64,000 nt of DNA from the NCBI GenBank assembly GCA_024654025.1, contig JANLIR010000002.1, forward strand, positions 168,959 to 232,958, in the 5' to 3' direction. This document shows positions 4,364 to 63,257 of the stretch, in pieces (positions within the stretch are counted from its first letter, which is position 1; each line of letters starts with the position of its first letter). Below the pieces are notes generated by a model. That model had not been told where the DNA came from, ran no database searches, and saw only the letters and a list, made by a program, of their open reading frames with translations. The translations under genes and the position numbers were made by a program. This DNA is from Candidatus Wolfebacteria bacterium (GTDB lineage: Bacteria; Patescibacteriota; Minisyncoccia; UBA6257; UBA9933).

Positions 4364-4702
4364 ATGAATATCGCATACGCTGCTCTAACTCCTTTAGTCC
4401 AATGCGGTCCCGGAACAGCCAAGCTCGAGTGCACTATTTGTGATCTATTTCAATTGGCTCAAAATATTTATAATTTTGTTATTGTTTTTGCGTTTGTTTT
4501 GGCTTTAGGAGCTTTGGTTTGGGCGGGGTTTAAAATAATGACTTCTGCCGGCGATCCGGGAAAATATAAAGACGCGGTTGGAAAAATCAGGACGATTTTA
4601 ATCGGCATAGCCATTCTGCTTTTAGCCGGGTTTGTGGTTGATTTAGTTTTGAAAGTCCTTGTCGGCGGCAGCTTGGGTCCGTGGAATAAATTGCCTTGCT
4701 AA
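4364..4702 (+). CDS. TrbC/VirB2-like (T4SS-pilin-like) small membrane protein, paralog 1
   Basis: Cys-rich N-terminus (QCGPG..LECTICD). Two TM helices flank the motif WAGFKIMTSAGDPGKYK. Confidence 0.55.
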   Translation: MNIAYAALTPLVQCGPGTAKLECTICDLFQLAQNIYNFVIVFAFVLALGALVWAGFKIMTSAGDPGKYKDAVGKIRTILIGIAILLLAGFVVDLVLKVLVGGSLGPWNKLPC

Positions 4703-4732
4703 AAAACCAAAAAAAATTTATTATAAATATTA

Positions 4733-5152
4733 ATGAAATCGCTTTTGTTTAAAATTTCTATAGTATCAGCGATAATTTTCGCGGTTTTTACCACGAGTAT
4801 TTTTGTAGAAAAAGTTTTGGCAGTGTCCGGTGGAGGGGTTAATACAGCGGCGCCGGGCGGCGGAGTTGATTCTGTTGGCGGCGGTAACGGACAGCTTTTT
4901 AATTATTTCGGATCCGGTTCGACTCTTGACAGTGTCCTTTCCAAAATAATCGATTATTTTATCGGTGTTTCGGTTTCAGTGGCTGTGATAATAGTTATCT
5001 ATGGAGCGTGGAAAATGATGACCGCGACAGGCGATCCTAAAAAATTCCAAGAAGGCCAAAAAACAGTTTTGTACGCCGCTATCGGGTTGTTGGTAATTTT
5101 ACTCGCAAGAGGGATTATCGGCGCGTTGTATGGGATAATACAAACGTTATAA
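4733..5152 (+). CDS. TrbC/VirB2-like (T4SS-pilin-like) small membrane protein, paralog 2
   Basis: Signal/TM helix, Gly-rich linker, motif YGAWKMMTATGDPKKFQ between two TM helices. Confidence 0.55.
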   Translation: MKSLLFKISIVSAIIFAVFTTSIFVEKVLAVSGGGVNTAAPGGGVDSVGGGNGQLFNYFGSGSTLDSVLSKIIDYFIGVSVSVAVIIVIYGAWKMMTATGDPKKFQEGQKTVLYAAIGLLVILLARGIIGALYGIIQTL

Positions 5153-5192
5153 TAAATATAAAGAAAAAGGTCGAGAATGAGAAATCAAAAAA

Positions 5193-5558
5193 ATGAAAAA
5201 AGTTTTACAAAAAATTATTTATTCAGGAGCGATTTTATCGCTCGTATTGCCGGTATTTTCGTTTGCCGCGATATTTACTCCGCCAGGCCAGGGGCAACCT
5301 GGAAATATTCCTATAACCGGCCTCTCTAATGTGTATGACACGCTAGATACGGTAGCTAATTATTTGTTGGGATTATTAATTGCTTTGGCGGTTGTTTTCA
5401 TTGTTTGGGGAGCGTTTCAGTTTTTAACTTCCGGTGGAGATGAAGCAAAAACAAAAGCGGCAAGAAATCATATTCTCTGGGCTCTTGTAGCTGTCGCGGT
5501 TGGGTTACTTGCTAAAGGGCTAGTTGCCGCGATAAGAGGAATCGCCGGAAACTTATAA
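5193..5558 (+). CDS. TrbC/VirB2-like (T4SS-pilin-like) small membrane protein, paralog 3
   Basis: Signal/TM helix, motif WGAFQFLTSGGDEAKTK between two TM helices. Confidence 0.55.
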   Translation: MKKVLQKIIYSGAILSLVLPVFSFAAIFTPPGQGQPGNIPITGLSNVYDTLDTVANYLLGLLIALAVVFIVWGAFQFLTSGGDEAKTKAARNHILWALVAVAVGLLAKGLVAAIRGIAGNL

Positions 5559-5728: not shown

Positions 5729-6679
5729 TCAATAAATCTTCAGGAGACCCGGTTGTCCCATGGCCACTTTTATTGGGCCGAGCGGGTTTCCGTTAGTTTT
5801 CCATTTCCAAAAGCCAACCGGTCCCGCTTTCCGTGTTTCGCCGGAGCCCTCGCCAATTATGATCTGGTAAGAGTTTTGGGCGTCAATCGTTATGATTGTC
5901 CCAATGGGCGGGGTCCATGAAGTCACCGCAACGCTCCCGGCCGGAATAAAAACACCATTTCGTCCTTCTTCCGGCGTGACCACGATTTCTTTGAGAACCG
6001 GCGCACTGGGCGCAACCCCCGCTTCCGCGTTAGATGGTTTCATGGTGAGAGTCGTCACGATGCCATTGTCGATTCCCTTTGCTGAGTTCCTTGCGAGCTC
6101 GGCTGTGCGGGGAAGAAACAATGAAATGACGATTGTTATGAAAATCATCGATGCGACAAACGTTATTGCCCTTCCGTTGAAGATGGAAGTGCCTCCGAAA
6201 AGCCGAGTTCCGATAAAGATGATAAAGGCCAAGAGCAGCAGCAACGGGATCAGCTCGGGTCGTTTATCTATCGGAATGATGATAAGCATCAGGGCGAATG
6301 ATAACTCGGCGAATAATACGTGCAGCGTCAGTCGAACATACCGCTCTCCAAACCCCACTGCTGTTCTTCGCCAGATCGCGTCGATTATTAACGCAATCGG
6401 CGCGGCCAGTAAAGAAAGCAAGATCGTGAAGAACGCCCAAACAAGTCCCGCAACCGAAATCCACATCGAGAATCCGAAAATTCCCAGAAGCAGGATTGGT
6501 ATGGGCAGAAGCATCATTACGATTGCGAGCCGCGAAAGCCCGACCCGATATACTTCAAAATCGGTTCTGTTATCGCCCCCAACAAGGGCAATGACCTCGG
6601 CGGCGTCCGCCGCGCCGGTGATGATTGTGTCGAGAATGAGCCGCAGCGTTAAGAGTATTTCACGAAGTGTTTCACGCAT
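5729..6679 (-). CDS. hypothetical polytopic membrane protein with soluble C-terminal domain (GC-rich cassette)
   Basis: Start moved to ATG at 6679, preceded by GGAGGctcctcATG. It overlaps the upstream stop by 8 nt. Several TM helices. Confidence 0.6.
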   Translation of the reverse strand: MRETLREILLTLRLILDTIITGAADAAEVIALVGGDNRTDFEVYRVGLSRLAIVMMLLPIPILLLGIFGFSMWISVAGLVWAFFTILLSLLAAPIALIIDAIWRRTAVGFGERYVRLTLHVLFAELSFALMLIIIPIDKRPELIPLLLLLAFIIFIGTRLFGGTSIFNGRAITFVASMIFITIVISLFLPRTAELARNSAKGIDNGIVTTLTMKPSNAEAGVAPSAPVLKEIVVTPEEGRNGVFIPAGSVAVTSWTPPIGTIITIDAQNSYQIIIGEGSGETRKAGPVGFWKWKTNGNPLGPIKVAMGQPGLLKIY

Positions 6680-7373
6680 GAGGAGCCTCCTTTCGATATT
6701 TGGCAGTCTTCCGGCCGCGTGCTGTGCGGCGGTTATTGAGCCATTCAGCCCAACGGTCGTTGAGGGGTTGAAGTTCTGAACCAATTACTCCAAATACTTC
6801 GTTGAGACGGATCCCAAACATTCTTAGCCACTGCATGACGATGTCGTGGTTGAGAAACTCGATTGCGCTGTCGAATTCTTGCGGAGGAAGTTCGCCGAGC
6901 CAGACGAAGAAGTTGATGGTATCTTCATCGGTCGTTTCCTTCCCTTCCTCGGATTCTTTAAGTATTAAAACCTTTCCGAGACAATCCACAAGAAGATTCT
7001 CTTCGCCAGGCCGGTAATTTCCTTCGTCAGAATAAAGCCGGGGCCGACAAAACTGCCGATCTTCCTGCCTCTTTCTGATGGTTTTTGCCGCGACTTTCTT
7101 CTTTTCATCTTCGGAAGATTCCATCTTCTGTAAAAAAACGAGAAGCTTGGCGCGGTAATGGTCACTCATCTTCGCCTGCACTTTTTTAGCCGTTTCTACG
7201 GCTGCCTTGCTCCCGACTTCGCGAATGACCTCGGCGGCAGCGGTTCTTGACCCCATCTTCATAAGCCCCCAGGCTTTTCTGAGGAGTTCAAAAACAGCAA
7301 TACCCCCTGCCGTTATCCCGAGTTCCTTTCCGACTTCGCCAGCGCTGAAATCAGCTTTCTTTTCCTCTGCCAT
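6672..7373 (-). CDS. hypothetical protein (GC-rich cassette, first gene)
   Basis: ORF preceded by aaAGGAGGacgccgaccATG. No family recognised. Confidence 0.55.
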   Translation of the reverse strand: MAEEKKADFSAGEVGKELGITAGGIAVFELLRKAWGLMKMGSRTAAAEVIREVGSKAAVETAKKVQAKMSDHYRAKLLVFLQKMESSEDEKKKVAAKTIRKRQEDRQFCRPRLYSDEGNYRPGEENLLVDCLGKVLILKESEEGKETTDEDTINFFVWLGELPPQEFDSAIEFLNHDIVMQWLRMFGIRLNEVFGVIGSELQPLNDRWAEWLNNRRTARGRKTAKYRKEAPHA

Positions 7374-7831: not shown

Positions 7832-8800
7832 TTATCCCCTTCTTCTTCCGTGAAATGTTTTGTGTATTTCTTTGAGTTCTTTATTTGTTAAATGCGTGTA
7901 AATTTGGGTTGTGGAAATATTGCTATGGCCTAAAAGTTCTTGCACAGACCTTAAATCCGCTCCTCCGATTAATAAATCAGTGGCAAAGCTATGCCGGAGC
8001 AAATGCGGGTGGATTTTTTGCGGTATCCCCGCTTTTCGGCCGTAAAAATCTATCAAGCGCTGAATTGCGCGAGGAATAATTCTCCCGATAACTTTCGGAT
8101 TTGCTTGCCCTGAGCTCATCGAGTCTGAGACTCTCAGAGTCGAATGACTTGTCGAACGGGTTGCTTTAGTTAAGCTTACAAACAGCGCTTCTTCGGCATC
8201 GGTTCGTTTTCCTAAATAATTTTTTATAGCTTTCTTGGCGGATTCGGATAAAAACACCACTCTTATTTTCCCGCCCTTGCCCCGCACGGAAATTTCTCCC
8301 CTATTCAAATCAAAATACCGGCTCAAAGAACATAATTCTGAAACGCGAAGCCCGGTTGAAAACAAAACTTCCAAAATCGCTTTGTCGCGAAGTCCTTTTA
8401 AATCGTTTGTTTTGGGCGCTGCCATAAGCCGTTCCAAATCCGAGTATTCCATTATATTGATTTGCCGGTTTGGAATTCTAGGAAGCTCGATTTTTTCCGA
8501 AGCTAAAACCCTGTAGTCGTTTTTCGCCAAAAATTTCAAAAAGTTTCTAAGCGCTATTATGTAGTAGCTTTGGGTTGTGCGTTTAAAGTTTTCTCCATCT
8601 CTGGGATTATGAAGCCGCGCCAGATAGATCCGAAAATCTCTTACGTTGTCAGCGGTGATATCGCCCTCGGATTTTATTTTGGCGAAATCAAAAAACTTCG
8701 TTAAATAGTGCTCATAATTTTCCCGCGTGTCTTTAGTCCTGCCTTTTTCAATCTCAAGATAATCAAGATAGTTTTTGAGGAGTTTGTTTATGTCAGCCAT
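7832..8800 (-). CDS. tyrosine recombinase (XerC/XerD-like integrase)
   Basis: Catalytic-domain motifs LFSTGLRVSEL, HPHLLRHSFATDLL, LLGHSNISTTQIYTH. Start placed at MADINK (8800). Carries a roughly 25-aa internal insertion. Confidence 0.85.
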   Translation of the reverse strand: MADINKLLKNYLDYLEIEKGRTKDTRENYEHYLTKFFDFAKIKSEGDITADNVRDFRIYLARLHNPRDGENFKRTTQSYYIIALRNFLKFLAKNDYRVLASEKIELPRIPNRQINIMEYSDLERLMAAPKTNDLKGLRDKAILEVLFSTGLRVSELCSLSRYFDLNRGEISVRGKGGKIRVVFLSESAKKAIKNYLGKRTDAEEALFVSLTKATRSTSHSTLRVSDSMSSGQANPKVIGRIIPRAIQRLIDFYGRKAGIPQKIHPHLLRHSFATDLLIGGADLRSVQELLGHSNISTTQIYTHLTNKELKEIHKTFHGRRRG

Positions 8801-8806
8801 AGCTTC

Positions 8807-8841
8807 GCAACCTGTAACTTGTAACAATTAACTTATAACAA
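8807..8841. repeat. 5 x 7-nt degenerate heptad array
   Basis: GCAACCT GTAACTT GTAACAA TTAACTT ATAACAA. Confidence 0.65.
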
Positions 8842-9798: not shown

Positions 9799-11910
9799 AT
9801 GCTTGAATCCAAAGAATTTTCAATTGATTTTCAAGGGAAACCCTTGAGCTTAAAAGTTTCCAAAATTGCCGAGCAAGCCAACTCGGCTGTTTTAGGCCAG
9901 TACGGCGATACCGTGGTTCTAGTAACCGCCACGATGGGCGAAAAAGACCGCGATACGGATTATTTTCCTTTGGTAGTTGATTACGAAGAAAAATTTTATG
10001 CCGCCGGAAAAATTATCGGCAGCCGGTTTATTCGGCGCGAAGGCCGGCCTTCGGAAGAAGCTATTCTTTCCGGAAGAATGATTGACCGGGCGCTTCGGCC
10101 CTTTTTTAATTCACGGATGAGAAGAGATGTTCAAATTGTAATCACTATCCTTTCTTACGACGAAGAAAACGATCCGGATTTTATTTCGCTTCTCTCCGCT
10201 TCAACCGCCTTGGCAATTTCCGATATTCCGTGGAATGGCCCTGTTGCCGGAGTAAGATTGGCAAAAATGAAAGGCGGAAATTTAATGATTAATCCGACCA
10301 AGACGGAAATTAGCGGCAGTGAATTTTTATTCGAATCTTTTGTCGCCGGAAATGAAAGTAAAATAAATATGATAGAACTGGCGGCAAACGAAGTTTCCGA
10401 AAAAGAAGTTATTAGTTCATTTGAAACAGCCCAGGAAGAAATAAAAAAATTGATAAAATTCCAAAAAGAAATTATTCCCAAAATCAGCAAACCAAAAGCC
10501 GAAGTGCTTCTTGTTGAGCCGGATCCGAATTTAAAGCATAAAGTTCAGGAATTTTTAAAAAATAAATTAGAAAACGCAGTTTATGTTTCCGATAAAGCCC
10601 AGCAGCGCCATATTTTGCGAAAGTTAAAAGAAGATTTGAAAGAGCATTTGGTTTCTGAGGGGCTAATTCCGGAAGGAATTGATGCTATTGTAGAGGAAGA
10701 AATCGACGCGCTTATCCATAAAAATATTTTGGAAAAAGATATGAGGCCGGACTCTCGAAAACTCGATGAGGTCAGAGCGCTTTTCGGCCAAGTCGGTTTA
10801 TTTAAACGGCTTCACGGTTCCGCCTTGTTTTTTAGGGGTAGTACTCAATCGTTGGCAGTTACAACTTTAGCCGCTCCCGGACAGGAGCAAATGATAGAAA
10901 CAATGGAAGTTTCAGGGAAACGCAGATTTATGCTCCATTACAATTTTCCGCCTTATTCGGTTGGAGAAATAGGCAGACTGGGCGGACCGGGACGCCGAGA
11001 AGTCGGCCACGGCGCTTTGGCGGAAAAAGCCATAAGGTCAATAATCCCCTCAAAAGAGGAATTCCCTTATACTATCCGTGTTGTTTCAGAGATTTTGTCT
11101 TCAAACGGGTCATCTTCTATGGCAACTGTCTGCTCGTCGGTATTATCGCTAATGGATGCAGGTGTTCCTATTAAAAAGCCGGTGGCAGGCATTGCTATGG
11201 GAATTATTATGGGACAAGCGACAAGCGACAAGCGACAAGATTACAAAGTGCTGACCGATATTCAAGGCCCGGAAGATCACTACGGCGATATGGATTGTAA
11301 AGTTGCAGGCACAACCGACGGAATTACCGCCATACAAATGGACGTGAAAATTGACGGCGTTACCACCGAAATTTTAAATGACGTGTTAGTTCAAGCCAAA
11401 AAAGCCCGCCTTGAGATTTTGGAAGTTATGAAATCCGTTATTGATAAGCCTAGGGAAAAACTTTCAGAGTTCGCGCCAATTATTTTGACAATCAACATTA
11501 GTCCGGAAAGAATCGGCGAAGTTATCGGCCCGGGCGGAAAAATGATTAATATGATAATTAAAGACACCGGCGTTACGACAATAGATATCGAACAAACCGG
11601 AAAAGTTTTTGTTTCCGCCACTACTCCCGAACAAGCCCAAGCGGCGATTGGGTTCATCCAATCCTTAACAAAAGAATTCGAGGTCGGCGAAATTATTGAA
11701 GGCAAGATTATCAAACTTTTGGAATTTGGAGCCATTGTCGATTTGGGAGGCGGCAATGACGGAATGATTCACATTTCAGAAGTAAAAAGCGGATTTGTAA
11801 AAGATATTAATGAAGTTCTTAAATTGGGCGATGTTGTGAGGGCAAAAATTATAAAAGTTGAAAACGGAAAAATCGGACTTTCGATAAAAGCCTTGGCGGA
11901 ACAAAAATAG
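9799..11910 (+). CDS. pnp: polynucleotide phosphorylase
   Basis: Two RNase PH domains (GSALFFRGSTQ, SSNGSSSMATVC, DHYGDMDCKVAGT), then KH (GPGGKMINMI) and S1 (GAIVDLGGGNDGMIHISE). Confidence 0.97.
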   Translation: MLESKEFSIDFQGKPLSLKVSKIAEQANSAVLGQYGDTVVLVTATMGEKDRDTDYFPLVVDYEEKFYAAGKIIGSRFIRREGRPSEEAILSGRMIDRALRPFFNSRMRRDVQIVITILSYDEENDPDFISLLSASTALAISDIPWNGPVAGVRLAKMKGGNLMINPTKTEISGSEFLFESFVAGNESKINMIELAANEVSEKEVISSFETAQEEIKKLIKFQKEIIPKISKPKAEVLLVEPDPNLKHKVQEFLKNKLENAVYVSDKAQQRHILRKLKEDLKEHLVSEGLIPEGIDAIVEEEIDALIHKNILEKDMRPDSRKLDEVRALFGQVGLFKRLHGSALFFRGSTQSLAVTTLAAPGQEQMIETMEVSGKRRFMLHYNFPPYSVGEIGRLGGPGRREVGHGALAEKAIRSIIPSKEEFPYTIRVVSEILSSNGSSSMATVCSSVLSLMDAGVPIKKPVAGIAMGIIMGQATSDKRQDYKVLTDIQGPEDHYGDMDCKVAGTTDGITAIQMDVKIDGVTTEILNDVLVQAKKARLEILEVMKSVIDKPREKLSEFAPIILTINISPERIGEVIGPGGKMINMIIKDTGVTTIDIEQTGKVFVSATTPEQAQAAIGFIQSLTKEFEVGEIIEGKIIKLLEFGAIVDLGGGNDGMIHISEVKSGFVKDINEVLKLGDVVRAKIIKVENGKIGLSIKALAEQK
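11213..11240 (+). repeat. heptanucleotide tandem repeat inside pnp
   Basis: GACAAGC x3 (perfect) plus GACAAGA. Encodes QATSDKRQD. Confidence 0.85.
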
Positions 11911-12183: not shown

Positions 12184-12338
12184 ATGAATTAAAATTTGTT
12201 TACGTTCGTTATCTTATTATATAAGAGATTAATTGTCAACGCGTCTTTTACCAAAACTTGTGCGGGGTAAAAGAAGGATAAAAAATGGCCAGAGCAAGGC
12301 TCCGGCCAACGGGCGTATTTCTTCTCGGCGTTTTAGGT

Positions 12339-13635: not shown

Positions 13636-13780
13636 TATTCCCAATCAAATATATTCCCGCTACCGTTCAACCGCCCAGCGAGCGATTTCACTGGCGCCGC
13701 TTCTTCGCTCGGTCGCCACAGGCGACCACCGTGCCCGCTCAGTCGCGGAGCCGCGCTGTGAATATATTTGTTTGAGAATA
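13636..13780. mobile_element. MITE-like element or structured RNA: GC-rich core between 21-nt imperfect terminal inverted repeats
   Basis: TATTCCCAATCAAATATATTC (13636-13656) pairs with GAATATATTTGTTTGAGAATA (13760-13780), 19/21. The core contains GGTCGCC aca GGCGACC. Confidence 0.5.
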
Positions 13781-16767: not shown

Positions 16768-17199
16768 ATGCAAACAAAAAAAATTACAGCAGAATATATT
16801 AGGGGCTTTATTGAGGGCGTGGGAACTTTTACTTTCACAACCTCGTCACGGGGTTTCAATAAAAAGGTTAAAATACCAACTTTTCAATTAAGAATGAATA
16901 TTCGAGATAAACGGTTAATTGAATTGATTAAAGGACATCTCGGACTTAAAAATAGGGTTTATATGTATCATTATCCGGGAACTGATGGCGCAAAACGAGG
17001 GCCACAAGCGATGTTAATAGTCCGAGAAATAGGTAATCTGAAAAATATAATCATCCCTTTCTTTTACGATAAGCTGGTTGGGTATAAAGCAGCCCAATTT
17101 AATAAGTGGCTTGAAAGAATAGGTAAAGACTCGGAAGTGCCAGAGGGATTTAAGATTCTATACCGTCTTCATAAATCCGGTTGGTTTTCAAAGAAATAG
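16768..17199 (+). CDS. free-standing LAGLIDADG homing endonuclease (single-motif type)
   Basis: AEYIRGFIEGVGTFTF is LAGLIDADG-like. 143 aa. Confidence 0.7.
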   Translation: MQTKKITAEYIRGFIEGVGTFTFTTSSRGFNKKVKIPTFQLRMNIRDKRLIELIKGHLGLKNRVYMYHYPGTDGAKRGPQAMLIVREIGNLKNIIIPFFYDKLVGYKAAQFNKWLERIGKDSEVPEGFKILYRLHKSGWFSKK

Positions 17200-17483: not shown

Positions 17484-18137
17484 CTAATAGGACGCGAAAA
17501 TACCCTTTGCCCACCCCCGGATTTTTAAAGATAGCCCAACATTACAGATGTAGATTTCAAAAGTTCCATAAGGAAGGCCCTCTTTTTTGGATTTTGTGGC
17601 TCTTTTTACTGAGAGTTTGAAAAACTGCTTTAAAGGGATGCCGGAAATTTCCGACCAGTATTTTTCTGTTCCCCGATGATCAAGGTGGGGATAGATATAA
17701 ATATGCCCCCGGAATTTCTGTTCCGGAACCTCACAAACATCCCTAAAAAAGGCCATCATTAACCTAACTATATTCGGGTCGCTGTTTGAGAACCGGACAA
17801 GGCCTTTTTGGGTTTTCCCACACCCTGCCCAATACAAAACCGAGCCAATTAGCCAAAGCTCACTTCTAGTTATTTTCTTTACCTGCTTTTGCGCTTGGTC
17901 GATAAGGTTTTCTCGTGTAGCTGTTTCCCGAGCCAGTCTGGTTGCGCGTCTTTTTTCCACTACCGAAAGCTTTACGGCGCGCTTTGATAGCGTTTTCTCC
18001 TGGTCTTTAGTTAGCGCGATGTTGCGGACCCATAAGCTCGCGCTACTTTTTGAAACGTTTAAGTTTTTCGCGATCTCGTTCAGAGAGTAACCATAAGCTC
18101 GGAGTTCTCGCGCTTTTTGTTTTTCAGCCTGCTTCAT
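17484..18137 (-). CDS. HTH-domain protein with degenerate LAGLIDADG-like C-terminal domain
   Basis: N-terminal YSLNEIAKNLNVSKSSASLWVRNI (HTH). C-terminal LWLIGSVLYWAGCGKTQKGLVRFSNSDPNIVRLMMAFF resembles homing-endonuclease cores. Confidence 0.5.
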   Translation of the reverse strand: MKQAEKQKARELRAYGYSLNEIAKNLNVSKSSASLWVRNIALTKDQEKTLSKRAVKLSVVEKRRATRLARETATRENLIDQAQKQVKKITRSELWLIGSVLYWAGCGKTQKGLVRFSNSDPNIVRLMMAFFRDVCEVPEQKFRGHIYIYPHLDHRGTEKYWSEISGIPLKQFFKLSVKRATKSKKEGLPYGTFEIYICNVGLSLKIRGWAKGIFASY

Positions 18138-18339: not shown

Positions 18340-18568
18340 TGGACGCGCCCCGACTCGAACGGGGGACCTTCTCGGTGTCCCGCACAAAGTGGGTGCTATA
18401 GGATTCGAACCTATGACCTTCGCAGTGTAAATGCGACGCTCTAACCAACTGAGCTAAGCACCCACTTTAAGCGGGATTGCGATTTGTTTTTAAAAATTTT
18501 ATATCAAATTAAATTTTTAGACAAATCGGGAATAAACGAGACGCTCTAACCAACTGAGCTACGCGTCC
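18340..18568 (-). tRNA. interrupted tRNA-Val (outer gene); exons 18535-18568 and 18340-18379, 155-nt insert
   Basis: 5' half GGACGCG TA GCTC AGTTGGTTA GAGC G TCTCG TT. 3' half GACAC CGAGA AGGTC CCCCG TTCGAGT CGGGG CGCGTCC A. Joined, they form a perfect 74-nt cloverleaf. Confidence 0.6.
18390..18463 (-). tRNA. tRNA-Val(UAC), nested inside the interrupted tRNA-Val
   Basis: GGGTGCT TA GCTC AGTTGGTTA GAGC G TCGCA TTTACAC TGCGA AGGTC ATAGG TTCGAAT CCTAT AGCACCC A. No encoded CCA. Confidence 0.9.
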
Positions 18569-26660: not shown

Positions 26661-27524
26661 TTACGGGATTTTAAAAATTTTTATATTTTCTCCGTTTGCC
26701 TCAATTTTTATCAACCCGTCTTTATCGGTTCTGAAAATTTTAGATTCAACAGAGGCAAGCCGGTTTAAAATTTCTTTTGTCGGATGGCCGTAAGAATTTT
26801 TCCCCACCTCTATTATTGAGATTTTTGGATCAACAGCTTTTAAAAATTCTTCACTGGTTGAAAATTTCGATCCGTGATGGCCGACTTTTAAAATATCAAC
26901 GCTAAGATCGTATTTTCCAAGTAAGTGATTTTCGGTTTTAAAACCGATATCGCCGGTAAAAAGAATTTTAACCATCCGGCTTTCTAAAATTGAAACCAGC
27001 GCCGTTTCGTTTAATGTTTTAGTTGTTTTGGGCAAATTATTTTTTTCCGGCCAGATGAAATTCATGCGGTTGTTCAAATATTTTATTTTGTCTCCGGCCG
27101 ACAAGACAATTATCGGAACATTATTATTTTTTAAAATTTTCAAAAGTTCTGGCCAAGTATTTCCTCTGCCGTTCAGGCCGTTGAAAATAAACGCGCCTAT
27201 CCGGTATCTTTTAGCGACGTCAATTAAGCCGGTGAAATGATCGGCTTCGGCATGGGACAAAATAATCAGATCAATATAGTGATCGGTTGATGGTAAAGAT
27301 TTTGAAAGTTCCGTTAATATTTTTGAGTTCGGTCCGCCGTCCATCAAAATTTTTACATTGCCCGGAAGCACAACCAATTCGCTGTCGCCCTGGCCGACAT
27401 TTAAAAAATACGCTTGAAGATTTTTATGTCCGCCGTCAAATATTATCGAGTTCCAGATAAAAAAGTCAAAAATTATTAAAGCAGAGATGAAAATTTTTAT
27501 CTTGAAGTTCATATTGAAGTTCAT
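26661..27524 (-). CDS. ComEC C-terminal metallo-beta-lactamase domain protein
   Basis: VGQGDSELVV, ILSHAEADHFTGL, VGHHGS. Confidence 0.8.
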   Translation of the reverse strand: MNFNMNFKIKIFISALIIFDFFIWNSIIFDGGHKNLQAYFLNVGQGDSELVVLPGNVKILMDGGPNSKILTELSKSLPSTDHYIDLIILSHAEADHFTGLIDVAKRYRIGAFIFNGLNGRGNTWPELLKILKNNNVPIIVLSAGDKIKYLNNRMNFIWPEKNNLPKTTKTLNETALVSILESRMVKILFTGDIGFKTENHLLGKYDLSVDILKVGHHGSKFSTSEEFLKAVDPKISIIEVGKNSYGHPTKEILNRLASVESKIFRTDKDGLIKIEANGENIKIFKIP

Positions 27525-28987
27525 ATTGCGAAATTATGCCGAGGTTGATTAAGCCGGCGCTGAACTTTTCTTTTAATATAGACGACGAATAAAATTAAAA
27601 GAGTGTAATAAATGATTATTCCTAGCGCGCCAAAAGAGATTTTTAAAGGCACTGCGATTTTCCCAAAAAAATTTATTATTGCCAGTTCGTAATACAAAAA
27701 TAAATGAAGGAACCAGCCTAAAATTTGCGACAGAGAATAAGAAAAAAACCCGATAAATCCGGTAAAAAATCCGACGCCCATCGTAAAAGGAATAAGCCAT
27801 AATATTAAAACATTCGCCAATATCGAAAGAAGAGAAAATTTTCCAAAAGAAGAAATAAGAATTGGCAAAACCGCCAGCTGGGCCGAAGCGGTTGATATTA
27901 AAATTTCTTTCCACTGGGCAATTTCTTTTCCCAGTTTCAAAAAATCTTTAATCGCCGGAGAAAGATAAGCAATTCCCATTAAAGCCAAAAAAGAAAGTTG
28001 GAACCCAATATCAAAAGCCAAAATTTTCGGGTTTTGTAAAATCATCAAAAAAGCGGAAACGCTCATCGCGTTTCGAAACGAATAAATCCGGCCGATTTGT
28101 TTTCCTAAAAGCGCAACCGAACCCATAATCGCGGCTCTCGCGACCGAAGCTTCGGCGCCGGTCATCAGCACAAACCCCAAAATAATTATCAGCGTCATTG
28201 CAAAAGCGATGTTTTTTCTAAAATAGAACGCGAATAAAAAAGCGGCCGTGGAAACTATAACGGTTATGTTGTATCCCGAAAGCGCCACAATGTGCGTTGT
28301 CCCGGAATTACTCATCGCATCTTTTAAATTTTTGGAAAATTCCGACCGTTCTCCTAATGTTAGTCCCGAAGCCAAAGCCGCTTCTTCTTGAGGTAAAATT
28401 TTTTGGAGCGCTAAAACAAATTTTTCTTTAAATGAAAACAAGACGGATTTTATTTTCGATCCTTGGTTCGTCTTTATTAAACTCGTTTTCGGATAAACGG
28501 AAACAGCCGATATTTCGTTTTTAGCCAAATAGTTCGCGTAAGAGCCCTCCGGTTTTTTAATTATTCCTTCGAAATTTAATTTATCGCCATAATTGAACTC
28601 AGGATAGGGTTTTAAAGTTATTAAAATTTTTCCTTTATAGGGCGCTTGCAGGGCAACCGCAATTTTTTGGCTCGCCCCTCTTTGCGGATAGTCGCTGACA
28701 ATGCCTAAAAAACTTATTTTCTTGTCAAAGGGAGCGAAAAAACCTTTTTGCATTTGGAAATTTACCCAAAAATAATACAAAGCTCCGGCAACGATAATCA
28801 AAGAAAGAAACGAAAGTTTTTTGAAATCAATTTTCGGTTTTAGATGAAAATAATGAAGCGTCAAAATTAAAGCCGCCAACAAAGCGGTTATAAGAATAAT
28901 TATTAAAAATTTTAAATTCAAACTGGCAAGTAAAACTCCAACGAGAAAAAAGAATATGGAATAAAAAGCGATGTCGTGGATTCTCAT
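27521..28987 (-). CDS. comEC: ComEC/Rec2 competence channel (membrane part)
   Basis: Polytopic. GTTHIVALSGYNITV and GAEASVARAAIMG motifs. 4-nt overlap with the MBL ORF. Confidence 0.8.
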   Translation of the reverse strand: MRIHDIAFYSIFFFLVGVLLASLNLKFLIIILITALLAALILTLHYFHLKPKIDFKKLSFLSLIIVAGALYYFWVNFQMQKGFFAPFDKKISFLGIVSDYPQRGASQKIAVALQAPYKGKILITLKPYPEFNYGDKLNFEGIIKKPEGSYANYLAKNEISAVSVYPKTSLIKTNQGSKIKSVLFSFKEKFVLALQKILPQEEAALASGLTLGERSEFSKNLKDAMSNSGTTHIVALSGYNITVIVSTAAFLFAFYFRKNIAFAMTLIIILGFVLMTGAEASVARAAIMGSVALLGKQIGRIYSFRNAMSVSAFLMILQNPKILAFDIGFQLSFLALMGIAYLSPAIKDFLKLGKEIAQWKEILISTASAQLAVLPILISSFGKFSLLSILANVLILWLIPFTMGVGFFTGFIGFFSYSLSQILGWFLHLFLYYELAIINFFGKIAVPLKISFGALGIIIYYTLLILFVVYIKRKVQRRLNQPRHNFAI

Positions 28988-29552: not shown

Positions 29553-29690
29553 CCCCGCACTAAAACAGAAATATTAACTCTTGTTTTGAGAAAAGCTAAG
29601 TATTAAGGATGAAATTTTATATAGAAAATTGGGTCTATTTTTTAAAACGTAGTACGAGTTATTTCATTTAATTTCTGTTTAGTGACGGGA
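29553..29690. repeat. inverted-repeat element with CCCCGCAC-type arms
   Basis: CCCCGCACTAAAACAGAAAT (29553-29572) against ATTTCTGTTTAGTGACGGGA (29671-29690). Imperfect, with about 98 nt between arms. Confidence 0.5.
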
Positions 29691-31579: not shown

Positions 31580-31760
31580 GCCGAAGTAGCTCAGTGGCAG
31601 AGCAACTGTTTTGCGTCAGCCCCGTTAGATATGCCGGGATAGCTCAGTGGTAGAGCAACTGTTTTGTAAACAGTAGGTCGTCGGTTCGAATCCGACTCTC
31701 GGCTCTCTCGGTGTATCTAACGGGGTAAATAGGTCGCGAGTTCGAATCTCGCCTTCGGCT
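31580..31760 (+). tRNA. Thr-like tRNA shell interrupted by a complete tRNA-Thr (outer gene; possibly a pseudogene)
   Basis: 5' part GCCGAAG TA GCTC AGTGGCA GAGC A ACTGT TTTG... 3' part ...TAAAT AGGTC GCGAG TTCGAAT CTCGC CTTCGGC T. The acceptor pairs perfectly. The 3' anticodon-stem strand is missing. Confidence 0.45.
31633..31704 (+). tRNA. tRNA-Thr(UGU), nested
   Basis: GCCGGGA TA GCTC AGTGGTA GAGC A ACTGT TTTGTAA ACAGT AGGTC GTCGG TTCGAAT CCGAC TCTCGGC T. Confidence 0.9.
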
Positions 31761-40935: not shown

Positions 40936-40968
40936 GCCCCGCACCAAAACAAGTGTTGGTGCGGGGGC
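40936..40968 (+). terminator. polX terminator hairpin (CCCCGCAC family)
   Basis: CCCCGCACCAA aacaagtg TTGGTGCGGGG. Confidence 0.6.
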
Positions 40969-54706: not shown

Positions 54707-54787
54707 TTTGTTATTACAACTTCGATTATTTTTTGGGTTAATTCTCGAAATTGATGATTAATTAATATTTTTTTACTTTCATTTATG

Positions 54788-54871
54788 TGGGCGAGAGAGG
54801 ATTTGAACCTCCACAACCTTACGGTTACATGGCCCTGAACCATGCGCGTCTGCCGATTCCGCCACTCGCCC
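54788..54871 (-). tRNA. tRNA-Leu(CAG)
   Basis: GGGCGAG TG GCGG..., anticodon arm CATGG TTCAGGG CCATG, long V arm, GGAGG TTCAAAT CCTCT CTCGCCC A. Confidence 0.9.
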
Positions 54872-54949
54872 AAATTTACAAAAGGTGCGGGGTGAACCGT
54901 ATGCGGTTGCCAGTTTCACTACCTGCCTTTTTGTTGTTTGCTGGTGGCG

Positions 54950-55876
54950 CTATCTAAATAAGTTTTTTGGGTTAAAAAACTGAATATGTTTCTCCGGATA
55001 TCTTAAAAATTCAAATTTTTTTGGGTTTTTTATAAAAGCTTGATACAACGGCGTTTTGAAAATCTTTTTTGGCTTAACGATTTTAAAGTTAATCTGGTTT
55101 TTATAATTAGGATTTTTTTCTAATAGGAACGATGCTGATTTATGCGGATTTAACTGATTTATACGGATATTTTTCTTAATTTTTTTGTTATTGGTTATAA
55201 GTTGTCGGTTATTAGTTATATAGTAGGCGGCTCCGCGGTGTTTTTTAAAAAAACTATAATCCGATTTAAAATTTGTCGCCTGGATATTGGATAATACCAG
55301 CGGCTCGCTCCCAATATTTATGCTGACATGGCCGAATCCCGGAGGCACAATAACCTTTTCTCCTGTCCCGGCTTTTATTAAATAAATTCTAGCGTTTTTT
55401 CCAAAATGACCTACAGAATGATTTATTTGAGGACTTATTTCTTGAAAAAGAAAAAGCGCTTTTCCTTTTATAACTTCGTATATTTCCGGGTAGGTTGTTT
55501 TTGTTTGCGGTTTATTCGGGTGAGCGTGGCCGATTGTTTTTACGAATTCTTCGCCTAAAAATCCAGGATTGATAACGGTTATGTCGTAGGTCGCGTTGTT
55601 CTTTTTAAAAACCAAACCATCCTTTTTTAATTTGACGCTTCGATACATCAAATAAAGGTTTTTTATTTTGGTTTTGCTAGCGGGATCTTTTAAAAACCTT
55701 TTTGCTTCGCCCAAAGTCCTTTTTTGGACGGGCAATGAGGAGGCGTCTTTTGACAATAACAACTTACCATCTTTTATTGATATTGGCAAGCCCCGTAACT
55801 TAAAAACACCGGTCTTTTTATGACGCGCATTTGAGAGCTTAATATTATTTTTGAAATTGAGTTTACTTTTTGCCAT
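54950..55876 (-). CDS. cupin-type glucose-6-phosphate isomerase-like protein
   Basis: TIGHAHPNKPQTKTTYPEIYEV (TxGHxH...ExY) and VPPGFGHVSIN (PPxxxHxxxN), as in archaeal cupin PGIs. Confidence 0.65.
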   Translation of the reverse strand: MAKSKLNFKNNIKLSNARHKKTGVFKLRGLPISIKDGKLLLSKDASSLPVQKRTLGEAKRFLKDPASKTKIKNLYLMYRSVKLKKDGLVFKKNNATYDITVINPGFLGEEFVKTIGHAHPNKPQTKTTYPEIYEVIKGKALFLFQEISPQINHSVGHFGKNARIYLIKAGTGEKVIVPPGFGHVSINIGSEPLVLSNIQATNFKSDYSFFKKHRGAAYYITNNRQLITNNKKIKKNIRINQLNPHKSASFLLEKNPNYKNQINFKIVKPKKIFKTPLYQAFIKNPKKFEFLRYPEKHIQFFNPKNLFR

Positions 55877-56002
55877 ATATAGTAATATTTAAAAAGCAGC
55901 TATGCGCGTTTTGTGTTTTTAAGTTACGGGGCAAGCCGCTCGCCGCGGATAAATTTTCAATTTTTAATTTTACAACTTTCATTGAATTTTTAATTGGGAA
56001 AT

Positions 56003-59261: not shown

Positions 59262-59312
59262 AGTTTGAGGTGAATAATTGAATTTAGTTTCAGTAGTGTT
59301 AAAATAACGAGG

Positions 59313-61438: not shown

Positions 61439-62092
61439 ATGGAACAAAGCGTTTTTCCTAAAAGTTTTAAAGAGGAAGTTGAGGAAGCCATGGCGTTGAA
61501 AGGTATGAATGTGCTGAAATTGTCAGAAGCCACAAATATTCCAGAACACTATCTTACGGCGCTTGTCAGCCACCAGTCAAAGAATCTTCCGCCGCCGCCT
61601 TATACAAGAGGATATATTTTAAAGATGGCGGAGGTTTTGAATTTGGACGGCGGTTCTTTGTGGCAGTCATATAGCAAAACTTTAATTTCTAAAACCTCCG
61701 GCAGCGAAGATATTTTACCGTTTAATAGATTTGCCTTAAAGCCGGTAAGCAAAGCGAAAATAGCAGTTGGAATAGTGGTGCTATTTGCTATAATTTATTT
61801 TGGGTGGCGAGCGGGCGGATTTTTTGGAACGCCGGCGATAGAAATAACTAATCCGGCAACTGATAATTTTATTATAAAAGATCCGATTATAAATTTAACC
61901 GGGAAAATAAATCCGCAGGACAAGCTGACAATAAACGGCGAAGAAGTAACTACTGACGGAAAGGGATATTTTGAAAAATATTGGGATTTTCATTTTGGTC
62001 CGGATAACATAACCGCGAAATTGGAATTTAAAGTTAAAAGATTATTAGGCAAAGAAGTCGTAGTTGATAGGCAAATAATTTTTCGGCCGTAA
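61439..62092 (+). CDS. HTH-domain, single-TM protein (RodZ-like)
   Basis: N-terminal HTH-like LKLSEATNIPEHYLTALV, central TM helix, C-terminal beta-rich domain. Confidence 0.5.
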   Translation: MEQSVFPKSFKEEVEEAMALKGMNVLKLSEATNIPEHYLTALVSHQSKNLPPPPYTRGYILKMAEVLNLDGGSLWQSYSKTLISKTSGSEDILPFNRFALKPVSKAKIAVGIVVLFAIIYFGWRAGGFFGTPAIEITNPATDNFIIKDPIINLTGKINPQDKLTINGEEVTTDGKGYFEKYWDFHFGPDNITAKLEFKVKRLLGKEVVVDRQIIFRP

Positions 62093-62227
62093 ACCCCGCA
62101 CCTTTTATGGATATATTTTTTTCGAAGCGGCAAAATGGGGTAAAATTTAATCACTTAAAAATAAATATTTGGAAATTTGAATGCTATAATGCTAAGTAAG
62201 CTTCGCAATCCATAAAAGGTGCGGGGT
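62093..62227. repeat. 20-bp perfect inverted repeat pair bracketing the recA upstream region
   Basis: ACCCCGCACCTTTTATGGAT (62093-62112) against ATCCATAAAAGGTGCGGGGT (62208-62227). Confidence 0.85.
62182..62190 (+). promoter_or_regulatory. candidate extended -10 (TGCTATAAT) for recA
   Basis: TGcTATAAT lies 45 nt upstream of the recA ATG, inside the inverted-repeat element. Confidence 0.35.
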
Positions 62228-62234
62228 AAATAAT

Positions 62235-63257
62235 ATGACAAAAAAAGAAGACAAAAAAACTGCCGTCAGTTCGAAAGACATAGACGAACTTTTGGAATCT
62301 CTTCAGGGTAAATTTGGCGAAGGGGCGATAATGAAACTCGGAGACGCCAAAAAAGTAAATGTTTCGGTTGTGCCGACAGGCTCGTTTTCGCTGGACTTGG
62401 CTTTGGGCGTAGGCGGTTTTCCCAGAGGAAGAATCGTGGAGATTTTCGGGCCGGAATCATCGGGCAAAACCACGTTGGCTTTGCATGCCGTAGCTGAAGC
62501 GCAGAAAAAAGGAGGCAGAGCGGCTTTTATTGACGCCGAACACGCAATGGATCCTGACTACGCCAAACGTTTGGGAGTAAAAATAAACGACCTTTTAATA
62601 TCACAGCCAGACAGCGGAGAAGAAGCGCTTAATATTTTGGAAAATTTGGTGCGTTCGGGGATTATAGATATTGTCGTTATTGATTCGGTTGCGGCGCTTA
62701 CGCCTAAAGCGGAGATAGAAGGGGAAATGGAACAGCAGTCAATCGGCCTTCAAGCGCGGCTGATGTCCAAAGCGCTTCGAAAAGTCACGGCTTTGGCGCA
62801 CAATACCAACACTTTGATAATTTTTATAAACCAGCTTCGGGAAAAAATCGGAATTATGTTTGGCAATCCCGAAACAACCCCCGGCGGACGGGCTCTAAAA
62901 TTTTACGCTTCGGTTAGAATTGATATCAGGCGTATCGCCCAGATAAAAAAAGGCGATGAAGCTGTGGGAAACCGCGTTACCGCTAAAGTGGTAAAAAATA
63001 AAGTTGCCGCGCCGTTTAAAAAGGCGGAATTTGATATTTTATTCGGCCAAGGGATTTCTTACGAGGGCGATGTTTTGACCGCCGCAATCAAATACAGTGC
63101 GATTACAAAATCCGGAAATACTTATATATTTGACGGAGAAAAATTAGGTGTTGGGTTTGACGCCTCCCGTGAAAAACTCAAAGAAGACAAAAAACTTGTG
63201 GAAGAAATTAAAAAGAAAATTTTAGCATTAATTTCTTCTCAAAACGCCGCCAAATAA
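62235..63257 (+). CDS. recA: recombinase RecA
   Basis: [44 protein letters not shown]. Confidence 0.97.

Follow-up and report, generated by a model that had tools for sequence, protein, structure and literature searches.

Perfect inverted repeats before recA in a Candidatus Wolfebacteria genome are probably the termini of a MITE-like element from a family widespread in CPR bacteria

The perfect inverted repeats that lie immediately upstream of recA in Candidatus Wolfebacteria bacterium are, we conclude with good confidence, the termini of a 133-bp non-autonomous (MITE-like) transposable element that inserted at a TAAA before the gene, probably with a near neutral outcome. The insertion took place at, and duplicated, a TAAA that shares sequence with the stop codon of the upstream rodZ-like gene and lies 4 nt ahead of the recA start. 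The family to which the element belongs is a widespread mobile element of CPR bacteria and a new variant of the MITE theme; in our literature search we found no description of its arm motif, nor of MITEs in CPR bacteria. The analysis concerns a 64,000-nt stretch of contig JANLIR010000002.1, hereafter the window.

Perfect 20-bp inverted repeats at 62093-62227 had been reported in a first-pass annotation of this DNA and are borne out, with positions 62093-62112 being 100% complementary to 62208-62227 over 20 nt and 95 nt lying between the arms. The upstream gene ends in a TAA (62090-62092) that directly precedes the left arm, and the recA ATG (62235) follows 7 nt past the end of the right arm. 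Allowing up to three mismatches, the 20-mer has three matches in the window versus none in 100 shuffles, and the 8-nt arm core CCCCGCAC occurs nine times against an expectation of 0.96. The twentieth pair, A62093/T62227, is part of the duplicated TAAA target; the true arms are therefore 19 bp and the element occupies 133 bp (62094-62226), with the 4-bp TAAA duplication on both sides. The locus is laid out as follows.

61439-62092, forward strand: HTH_25 (rodZ-like) gene, 217 aa (Pfam, gene maps)
62090-62093, forward strand: left TAAA target-site duplication, which includes the TAA stop of the HTH_25 gene; a single TAAA in relatives
62094-62112, forward strand: left 19-bp terminal inverted repeat, CCCCGCACCTTTTATGGAT (arm pairing, family comparison)
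62113-62207, forward strand: AT-rich non-coding interior, 95 nt
62123-62131, forward strand: inner stem CGAAGCGGC, paired with GCTTCG at 62200-62205 (folds)
62182-62190, forward strand: extended -10-like box TGCTATAAT facing recA, no -35; putative function
62200-62209, forward strand: subfamily motif GCTTCGCAAT (subfamily alignment A1)
62208-62226, forward strand: right 19-bp terminal inverted repeat, ATCCATAAAAGGTGCGGGG (arm pairing, family comparison)
62227-62230, forward strand: right TAAA target-site duplication (comparison with relatives)
62235-63257, forward strand: recA

RecA, for which no identical protein is on record, places the genome in Patescibacteria. The evidence for insertion comes from the recA loci of relatives whose RecA proteins are 88-96% identical. 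The gene order ftsK, HTH_25, recA is common to the window and these relatives, and the distance from the HTH_25 stop to the recA ATG is 5-6 nt in L001/L003 and L009 versus 142 nt in the window. These empty sites read stop-TAAATAAT-ATG or stop-TAAAATAAT-ATG; placed side by side, the relatives have CCG-TAAA-TAAT-ATG and the window has CCG-TAAA-[CCCCGC...GCGGGG]-TAAA-TAAT-ATG. It had been stated that the repeats enclose the entire recA upstream region, which is misleading, as the element-free upstream region is just those 5-6 nt. A Hainich groundwater contig from the same population (L122), 98.9-99.5% identical to the window, carries an identical element, and the sister lineage L115 has a copy at the same TAAA with 9 differences in 133 positions (93% identical). 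Absence from all relatives, which the first-pass annotation had named, together with no effect on the recA transcript structure, as pointing to neutral selfish DNA only, is not what is seen, since the element is present in this one sister lineage and missing from four others. L008 provides the exact empty site of the filled L115 locus, the two sharing 92.5% nucleotide identity in recA and 95.5% in the HTH_25 gene, and a filled and an empty sister at the same TAAA imply either independent insertion at a hot spot or precise excision, a requirement that counts against the simple reading.

Other features were seen at the same junction. A motif, CCGTAAATAA, is repeated in tandem about three times before recA in L008 (697-723) and in L115 (reverse strand, in the interval between element and recA), and may reflect replication slippage or a footprint at an insertion hot spot. 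In L004 an unrelated 68-nt AT-rich sequence with TATATAATAT fills the gap between HTH_25 and recA (9933-10000), and the junction has thus been remodelled in at least three ways among close relatives. Upstream of ftsK, L001/L002 carry an RVT_1 reverse transcriptase with a bAvd accessory gene (5748-7117), a pair that looks like a diversity-generating retroelement and that neither the window nor L004 has at the syntenic place.

The same architecture recurs far beyond recA. Scanning one genome per species with the pattern CCCCGCACCTTT-N95-125-AAAGGTGCGGGG returned 99 matching stretches, where about 0.1 would be expected by our own arithmetic under uniform base composition. Most are labelled Patescibacteria (Parcu-, Sacchari-, Uhr-, Falkow-, Buchanan-, Nealson-, Jorgensen-, Portnoy- and Moraniibacteria) and a minority Bdellovibrionales, Planctomycetales, Gammaproteobacteria, Elusimicrobia and Omnitrophota, the latter assigned by label alone, as the base composition of these hosts was uninformative. 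Among 102 non-redundant copies, the arms are complementary over exactly 19 nt counted from CCCC (0.81-1.0), with a value of about 0.2 at position 20; in the family alignment pairing reaches 95.8% over the 19-bp helix, compared to 34% in the four columns beyond it. Arm positions 13-19 differ between copies and pair within them, giving seven covarying pairs that include all four Watson-Crick types. Other arm sequences (CCCCGTTAG, CCCCGTAAC, CCCCGCCTT and CCCCGCACT) show the same architecture, and the units range from 63 to about 300 nt, with interiors that are largely unrelated. Of 101 copies, 58 have identical 4-bp flanks and 10 more have flanks with one mismatch; the duplications are mainly TTGA, TCAA, TTTA and TAAA, following the pattern T-N-N-A, with a preferred target of approximately TTKAC. 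When the boundary was shifted by one base as a control, identical flanks were found in 0 of 121 cases compared to 79 of 133 unshifted.

Where an ORF was called on both sides, 80 of 84 copies lie between ORFs and four inside one, with all gene contexts represented. The targets TTGA and TAAA each include a stop codon, which is why many copies begin 0-2 nt past one, and the arrangement seen at recA, GGGG-TAAA-NNNN-ATG, is common to several independent copies. The closest species representative, JAJYNK01, has at least seven copies, five of them in the recA-type subfamily, JAUSKP01 has at least 13, and the window holds at least six members or remnants; no paired family arms were found in viral contigs. 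The recA element thus shows the 19-bp terminal repeats, fixed 4-bp duplication, 133-bp length without a transposase and multiple copies of a MITE, and the earlier impression that it looks like one is upheld by the exact empty sites, the 4-bp duplication and about 100 copies of the same architecture elsewhere.

Insertion polymorphism, as filled and empty pairs among relatives, was found at three sites: recA, ftsK and the GPI gene. The latter two, together with a decayed copy, are located in the window as follows.

29553-29689, no strand assigned: decayed complete family copy, arms CCCCGCACTAAAACAGAAAT and ATTTCTGTTTAGTGACGGG
55791-55931, no strand assigned: intact element of the wider family, arms CCCCGTAACTTAAAAACAC, with a CAAG duplication at 55787-55790 and 55932-55935
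59296-59309, forward strand: empty site GTGT-TAAA-ATAACG upstream of ftsK, where L004/L042 carry a 134-bp family copy

The GPI-gene copy is 141 bp long, has arms of the CCCCGTAAC... type and interrupts the GPI gene within its first codons; the site is empty in L004 and L001, where it reads TTGGCAAGCCGC. The called GPI ORF (54950-55876, minus strand) starts inside the element, so that its first 29 residues are element-encoded, and the original first ten or so GPI codons are stranded upstream of the element. Recurrences of the arm core had been listed at four places in the window, and these proved to differ in kind. That at 54880-54893 is a true family arm (54874-54892) adjoining tRNA-Leu, and that at 29553-29572 is a real arm whose partner had been missed, the complete decayed copy being 29553-29689. 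The site at 40937-40966 is a possible member, with the core and no target duplication, and at 12260 there is a lone core. Two further sites, at 6105 and 8280, are probably due to chance and fall inside coding sequence. The hairpin at 40937-40966 is 30 nt long (CCCCGCACCAA-AACAAGTG-TTGGTGCGGGG), follows closely on the polX stop and extends over the TTG at which a NUDIX ORF is called to start. Between ruvA and a Mur ligase gene there is also a 145-nt unit (13636-13780) with 21-nt inverted repeats TATTCCCAATCAAATATATTC, 90% complementary, and a strikingly GC-rich interior, which may be a different mobile element.

It could be argued that the insertion has since been put to use, with TGCTATAAT now serving as the main recA promoter and uncoupling recA from the ftsK/rodZ-like operon, although we regard this as rather unlikely. 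The box matches the extended -10 perfectly and lies 45 nt before the recA ATG, and a consensus box is specific to the recA copies, as sister copies have the weaker TATAGAAT at the aligned position. The L115 copy keeps TGnTATAAT, as TGTTATAAT, despite nine substitutions, with N alone changed, which may hint at selection on the box; however, by our own arithmetic nine random substitutions would miss the eight fixed positions 57% of the time, and retention of the box falls short of significance. The box lacks a -35, and no two-hexamer promoter was called within the element by the scan. Moreover, relatives presumably express recA without the element, and an outward promoter as a family-wide trait was rejected, the box being directed toward the gene start in four copies of the subfamily (L103, L106, window, L115) and not in three (L108, L062, L102), hence without orientation bias. 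The earlier description of a MITE carrying a promoter is thus no more than plausible as to the promoter. From its sequence, TGCTATAAT remains a plausible extra, recA-proximal promoter.

The same 9-mer occurs in a promoter-like site further upstream:

61767-61794, forward strand: promoter-like TTGGAA-16-TGCTATAAT inside the HTH_25 coding sequence, a 10/12 match with TG, about 440 nt upstream

Around its -10 box a 20-nt stretch, TTATTTGCTATAATTTATTT, is identical in six lineages, synonymous positions included, while neighbouring codons vary. This site is likely to be the native recA promoter and is, on conservation, a better candidate than the box in the element. If the native promoter does lie inside the upstream gene, recA transcripts would carry a leader hairpin of -50 kcal/mol, which by analogy is a possible target of RNase III.

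A second possibility, which we consider improbable, concerns how the family moves, namely by way of a single-stranded hairpin (REPIN/RAYT-like or attC-like) and not as a double-stranded transposon recognised at its terminal inverted repeats. A point against our transposon-end reading is that inner arm positions are hypervariable yet self-complementary, which is unusual for protein-bound transposon ends and could indicate a hairpin intermediate. The covariation at positions 13-19 and the fixed 19-bp helix would agree with this, as would several targets that lie in hairpin loops (tRNA anticodon loops and GGGGG-TCAACT-CCCCC). Against it stand the regular 4-bp target duplications present across the family, since 4-bp duplications are the signature of staggered double-strand cuts and we know of no HUH/RAYT or integron-type reaction that makes them. 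In addition, tRNA-cargo copies persist without inner-arm complementarity, and no Y1 transposase was seen in the window.

We keep to the reading of a MITE-like transposon, in which a trans-acting transposase would cut the target with a 4-bp stagger and new members with new interiors would arise when two arms of the same subfamily come to flank other DNA, which would account for arms that are alike within a copy and unlike between copies. This mechanism is only inferred, because our searches brought to light neither a transposase nor an autonomous element that has these ends. Specifically, Pfam searches of about 60 genes and NCBIfam searches of ten unannotated ORFs gave no DDE or Y1 transposase in the window; apart from housekeeping genes they turned up just a weak HTH_38 match, a LAGLIDADG ORF and the Xer-like recombinase. 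No autonomous element with matching ends was present in the window or in 0.97 Mb of the relatives' and family loci, and generic CCCCG scans to 4.5-6 kb gave just cross-pairs between separate small units. An arm pair 2.7 kb apart in L055 was considered as an autonomous parent and rejected as spurious, its right 'arm' lying inside coding sequence. A transposase was not the top cluster among the recurrent neighbouring proteins of the copies, that place being taken by PilB/PilT.

It is very improbable that the pairing evolved for the control of recA, whether through attenuation, through an RNase III switch or by occluding the ribosome binding site. The whole element does fold into a single long and very stable hairpin (-50.3 kcal/mol as RNA, z = -5.8) that ends 7-8 nt 5' of the ATG. 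However, it is missing from most close relatives and the same arms occur about 100 times beside unrelated genes. No U-tract terminator was called in the element, TAAATAAT following the stem, and in a covariance-model scan of the window with Rfam 15 nothing matched it at the gathering score, a permissive E-value scan adding just sub-threshold plant miRNA hairpin models. Its reading frames offer only a nine-codon in-frame stretch through the arm, with no ATG. Occlusion of the ribosome binding site by the hairpin was rejected on predicted accessibility, which in the -13 to -5 region is 0.33 for transcripts from the upstream site, expected to include both arms, and 0.34 for element-initiated ones without the 5' arm, the A-rich start being likewise equal. 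The proposal that the repeats sequester the promoter or 5' UTR consequently finds no support in these predictions. The effect of the insertion on recA is, according to these predictions, probably close to neutral because the A-rich start region would stay open.

Least probable of all, and hardly to be entertained, is a phase-variable recA in which a site-specific recombinase flips the 95-nt segment as an invertible promoter: inverted repeats do flank a promoter-like box immediately before the gene and a tyrosine recombinase gene is present in the window (7835-8827), but target duplication and a multi-copy family are not features of invertons, a single orientation is found in three independent assemblies (window, L122, L115), the recombinase is Xer-like, 54 kb away and the only one in the window, and a 95-nt spacer is very short for inversion.

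Several known systems resemble the family in part. Correia elements (CREE/nemis) of Neisseria are 100-155-bp MITEs with terminal inverted repeats and gene-adjacent insertion, which form hairpins in the transcripts of their neighbours, may give rise to promoters at their ends and can be either cut or protected by RNase III (PMC2649163, PMC9330008). They offer the best analogy for possible effects of the recA copy, where an added promoter and RNase III processing are possible on that ground (PMC2649163). The family does not belong to them, as the Correia repeat is 26 bp and the ends here are 19 bp (CCCCGCACC...), the Correia target is TA compared to a 4-bp T-N-N-A, and the hosts are Neisseria versus Patescibacteria. 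Unlike in Correia elements, interiors are highly diverse and in places gene-carrying, and promoter or RNase III effects may be extended to the family as a whole only by analogy. Rickettsia palindromic elements (RPE) are also small, occur in reduced genomes and insert in-frame without destroying the gene (PMC10969869), much as copies of the present family donate an N-terminus to GPI in the window and leader peptides to pilins. RPE, however, add internal peptide segments, whereas here the 5' end of the gene (start codon and leader) is replaced at a defined junction, and other members, again unlike RPE, replace whole tRNA genes.

With regard to the ends, piggyBac makes a 4-bp duplication of TTAA (variants TAAA, TCAA) and has ends starting with CCC (PMC10813416), and its prokaryotic counterpart IS1380 (PMC5718144) can mobilise variable adjacent DNA (PMC9330008). 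A 4-bp T...A duplication and CC(C) termini are shared with our family, but the likeness is limited to these, and in place of TTAA the family prefers TTGA(C) and TTTA(C) as targets; we regard a relation to IS1380/piggyBac as a lead. The short extragenic palindromes, multiple copies and selection for hairpin pairing recall REP/REPIN sequences. REPIN movement leaves no target duplication and relies on a Y1 (RAYT) transposase, while here the 4-bp duplications are regular and the approximately 60 window genes include no Y1 transposase. In mobile insertion cassettes (MICs), such as MIC231 of Bacillus cereus, transposon ends flank passenger DNA without a transposase. Capture of this MIC or composite type fits the tRNA and leader-peptide cargos of the family, although its passengers are tiny (63-300-nt units) and its tRNA passengers always lie inside the cognate tRNA gene, an arrangement of which we found no report.

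A complete tRNA lies inside 9 of the 102 family copies, with three further cases in the window, where three of the eight tRNA genes are element cargos:

18340-18568, reverse strand: tRNA-Val(TAC) at 18390-18463 between degenerate arms, the whole set into the anticodon loop of another tRNA-Val(TAC) whose halves are 18533-18568 and 18340-18377
31580-31760, forward strand: tRNA-Thr(TGT) at 31633-31705 with arms CCCCGTTAGATAT (31620-31632) and ATCTAACGGGG (31715-31725)
54787-54892, reverse strand: tRNA-Leu(CAG) cargo with right arm (54874-54892), the left arm and the 3' half of the host tRNA being deleted

Arms similar to those at recA had already been claimed around the nested tRNA-Val, and we agree that they are degenerate family arms. 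The tRNA-Thr(TGT) is enclosed by Thr-type remnant halves (31580-31613 and 31726-31760), of which the 3' half matches Thr best and the 5' half is tied between Val and Thr. The 5'-half remnant of the host tRNA-Leu is at 54894-54927; this nest is truncated in the window, intact in L004 (2197-2425), and in L001 the same tRNA is uninterrupted. When the outer halves were joined, ARAGORN called Val-TAC and Leu-CAG. Reconstruction of stem-loops proved too permissive a test with free trimming and isotype matching of the outer halves was used, by which the best match of the outer 5' half was the isotype of the cargo in 11 of 13 cases (68-tRNA panel). Same-isotype nests of Leu, Glu, Ser, Ile and Thr occur elsewhere, at loci that include L012 3012-3290 and L101 1077-1203; in L012 the nesting is serial, since one right arm comes after another and behind each of the two stand TGAA and a tRNA-Leu 5' half. 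None of the tRNA cassettes in the copies examined was free-standing. Known tRNA interruptions in Patescibacteria are group I introns (PMC13011429), a reading we reject here, as the inserts are 100-190 nt and each contains a complete tRNA, and no intron model matched a group I ribozyme core in the window. Our literature search gave no report of a tRNA-in-tRNA arrangement.

Left of position 1077 in L101 there is an outer tRNA-Thr(CGT) whose anticodon arm is restored after excision and which has an extra hairpin in the T-arm region, CCCAGTC-ATCC-GACTGGG, suggesting a further small insertion. Not more than 1.5 kb from the nested tRNA-Val of the window are a LAGLIDADG endonuclease ORF (16768-17196) and a 217-aa ORF (17487-18137) with weak HTH_38/IS3-type N-terminal similarity.

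A second kind of cargo concerns type IV pilin genes, where seven element ends fall at the G|F(T/S)xxE junction, the site of prepilin cleavage (loci L039 873-1000, L039 1436-1561, L087, L097, L102 and L011). At six of the seven the element encodes an ATG...KGAG leader, with AAA GGT GCG GGG|TTT ACN giving K-G-A-G|F-T, and the supplied leaders, which terminate in KGAG or SAG, are read in frame with FT(L/I)xE. The prominence of PilB/PilT beside the copies is consistent with insertions at pilin junctions. The window itself has three tandem T4SS-pilin-like small genes (4364-5558) and a ComEC competence gene (27524-28987), DNA-uptake machinery that bears on the horizontal spread of cassettes.

We tentatively propose, as an idea that may well prove wrong, that the CCCCG-ended elements are Patescibacteria-wide gene-replacing cassettes, moved by an unrecognised transposase, which both home to and replace cognate tRNAs and supply pilin starts and leaders. 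Members carrying a tRNA would home to the resident tRNA of the type they carry, enter it at the anticodon loop and take its place, so becoming indispensable, and those in pilin genes would land at the G|FT junction and provide the gene with a fresh start codon and a leader that finishes in KGAG. Targeting of the cognate tRNA could operate through homology, with tRNA halves as recombination arms after DNA uptake, or through a choice of target guided by the cargo.

The striking repeat before recA is selfish DNA and not an SOS control element. This is a deflating result for recA, and the element family matters more. CPR genomes are tiny and have been thought to be poor in transposons, yet they host a widespread mobile element. 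Such streamlined genomes tolerate its insertions where tetranucleotides that contain a stop codon or adjoin a promoter are targeted, where the 5' ends of genes are rebuilt, and where the element carries a working copy of the tRNA that it disrupts. The broken outer tRNAs will escape annotation pipelines, which will also assign wrong starts to genes such as the GPI gene of the window. Cognate tRNA homing, if true, would be a new selfish strategy comparable to that of homing introns.
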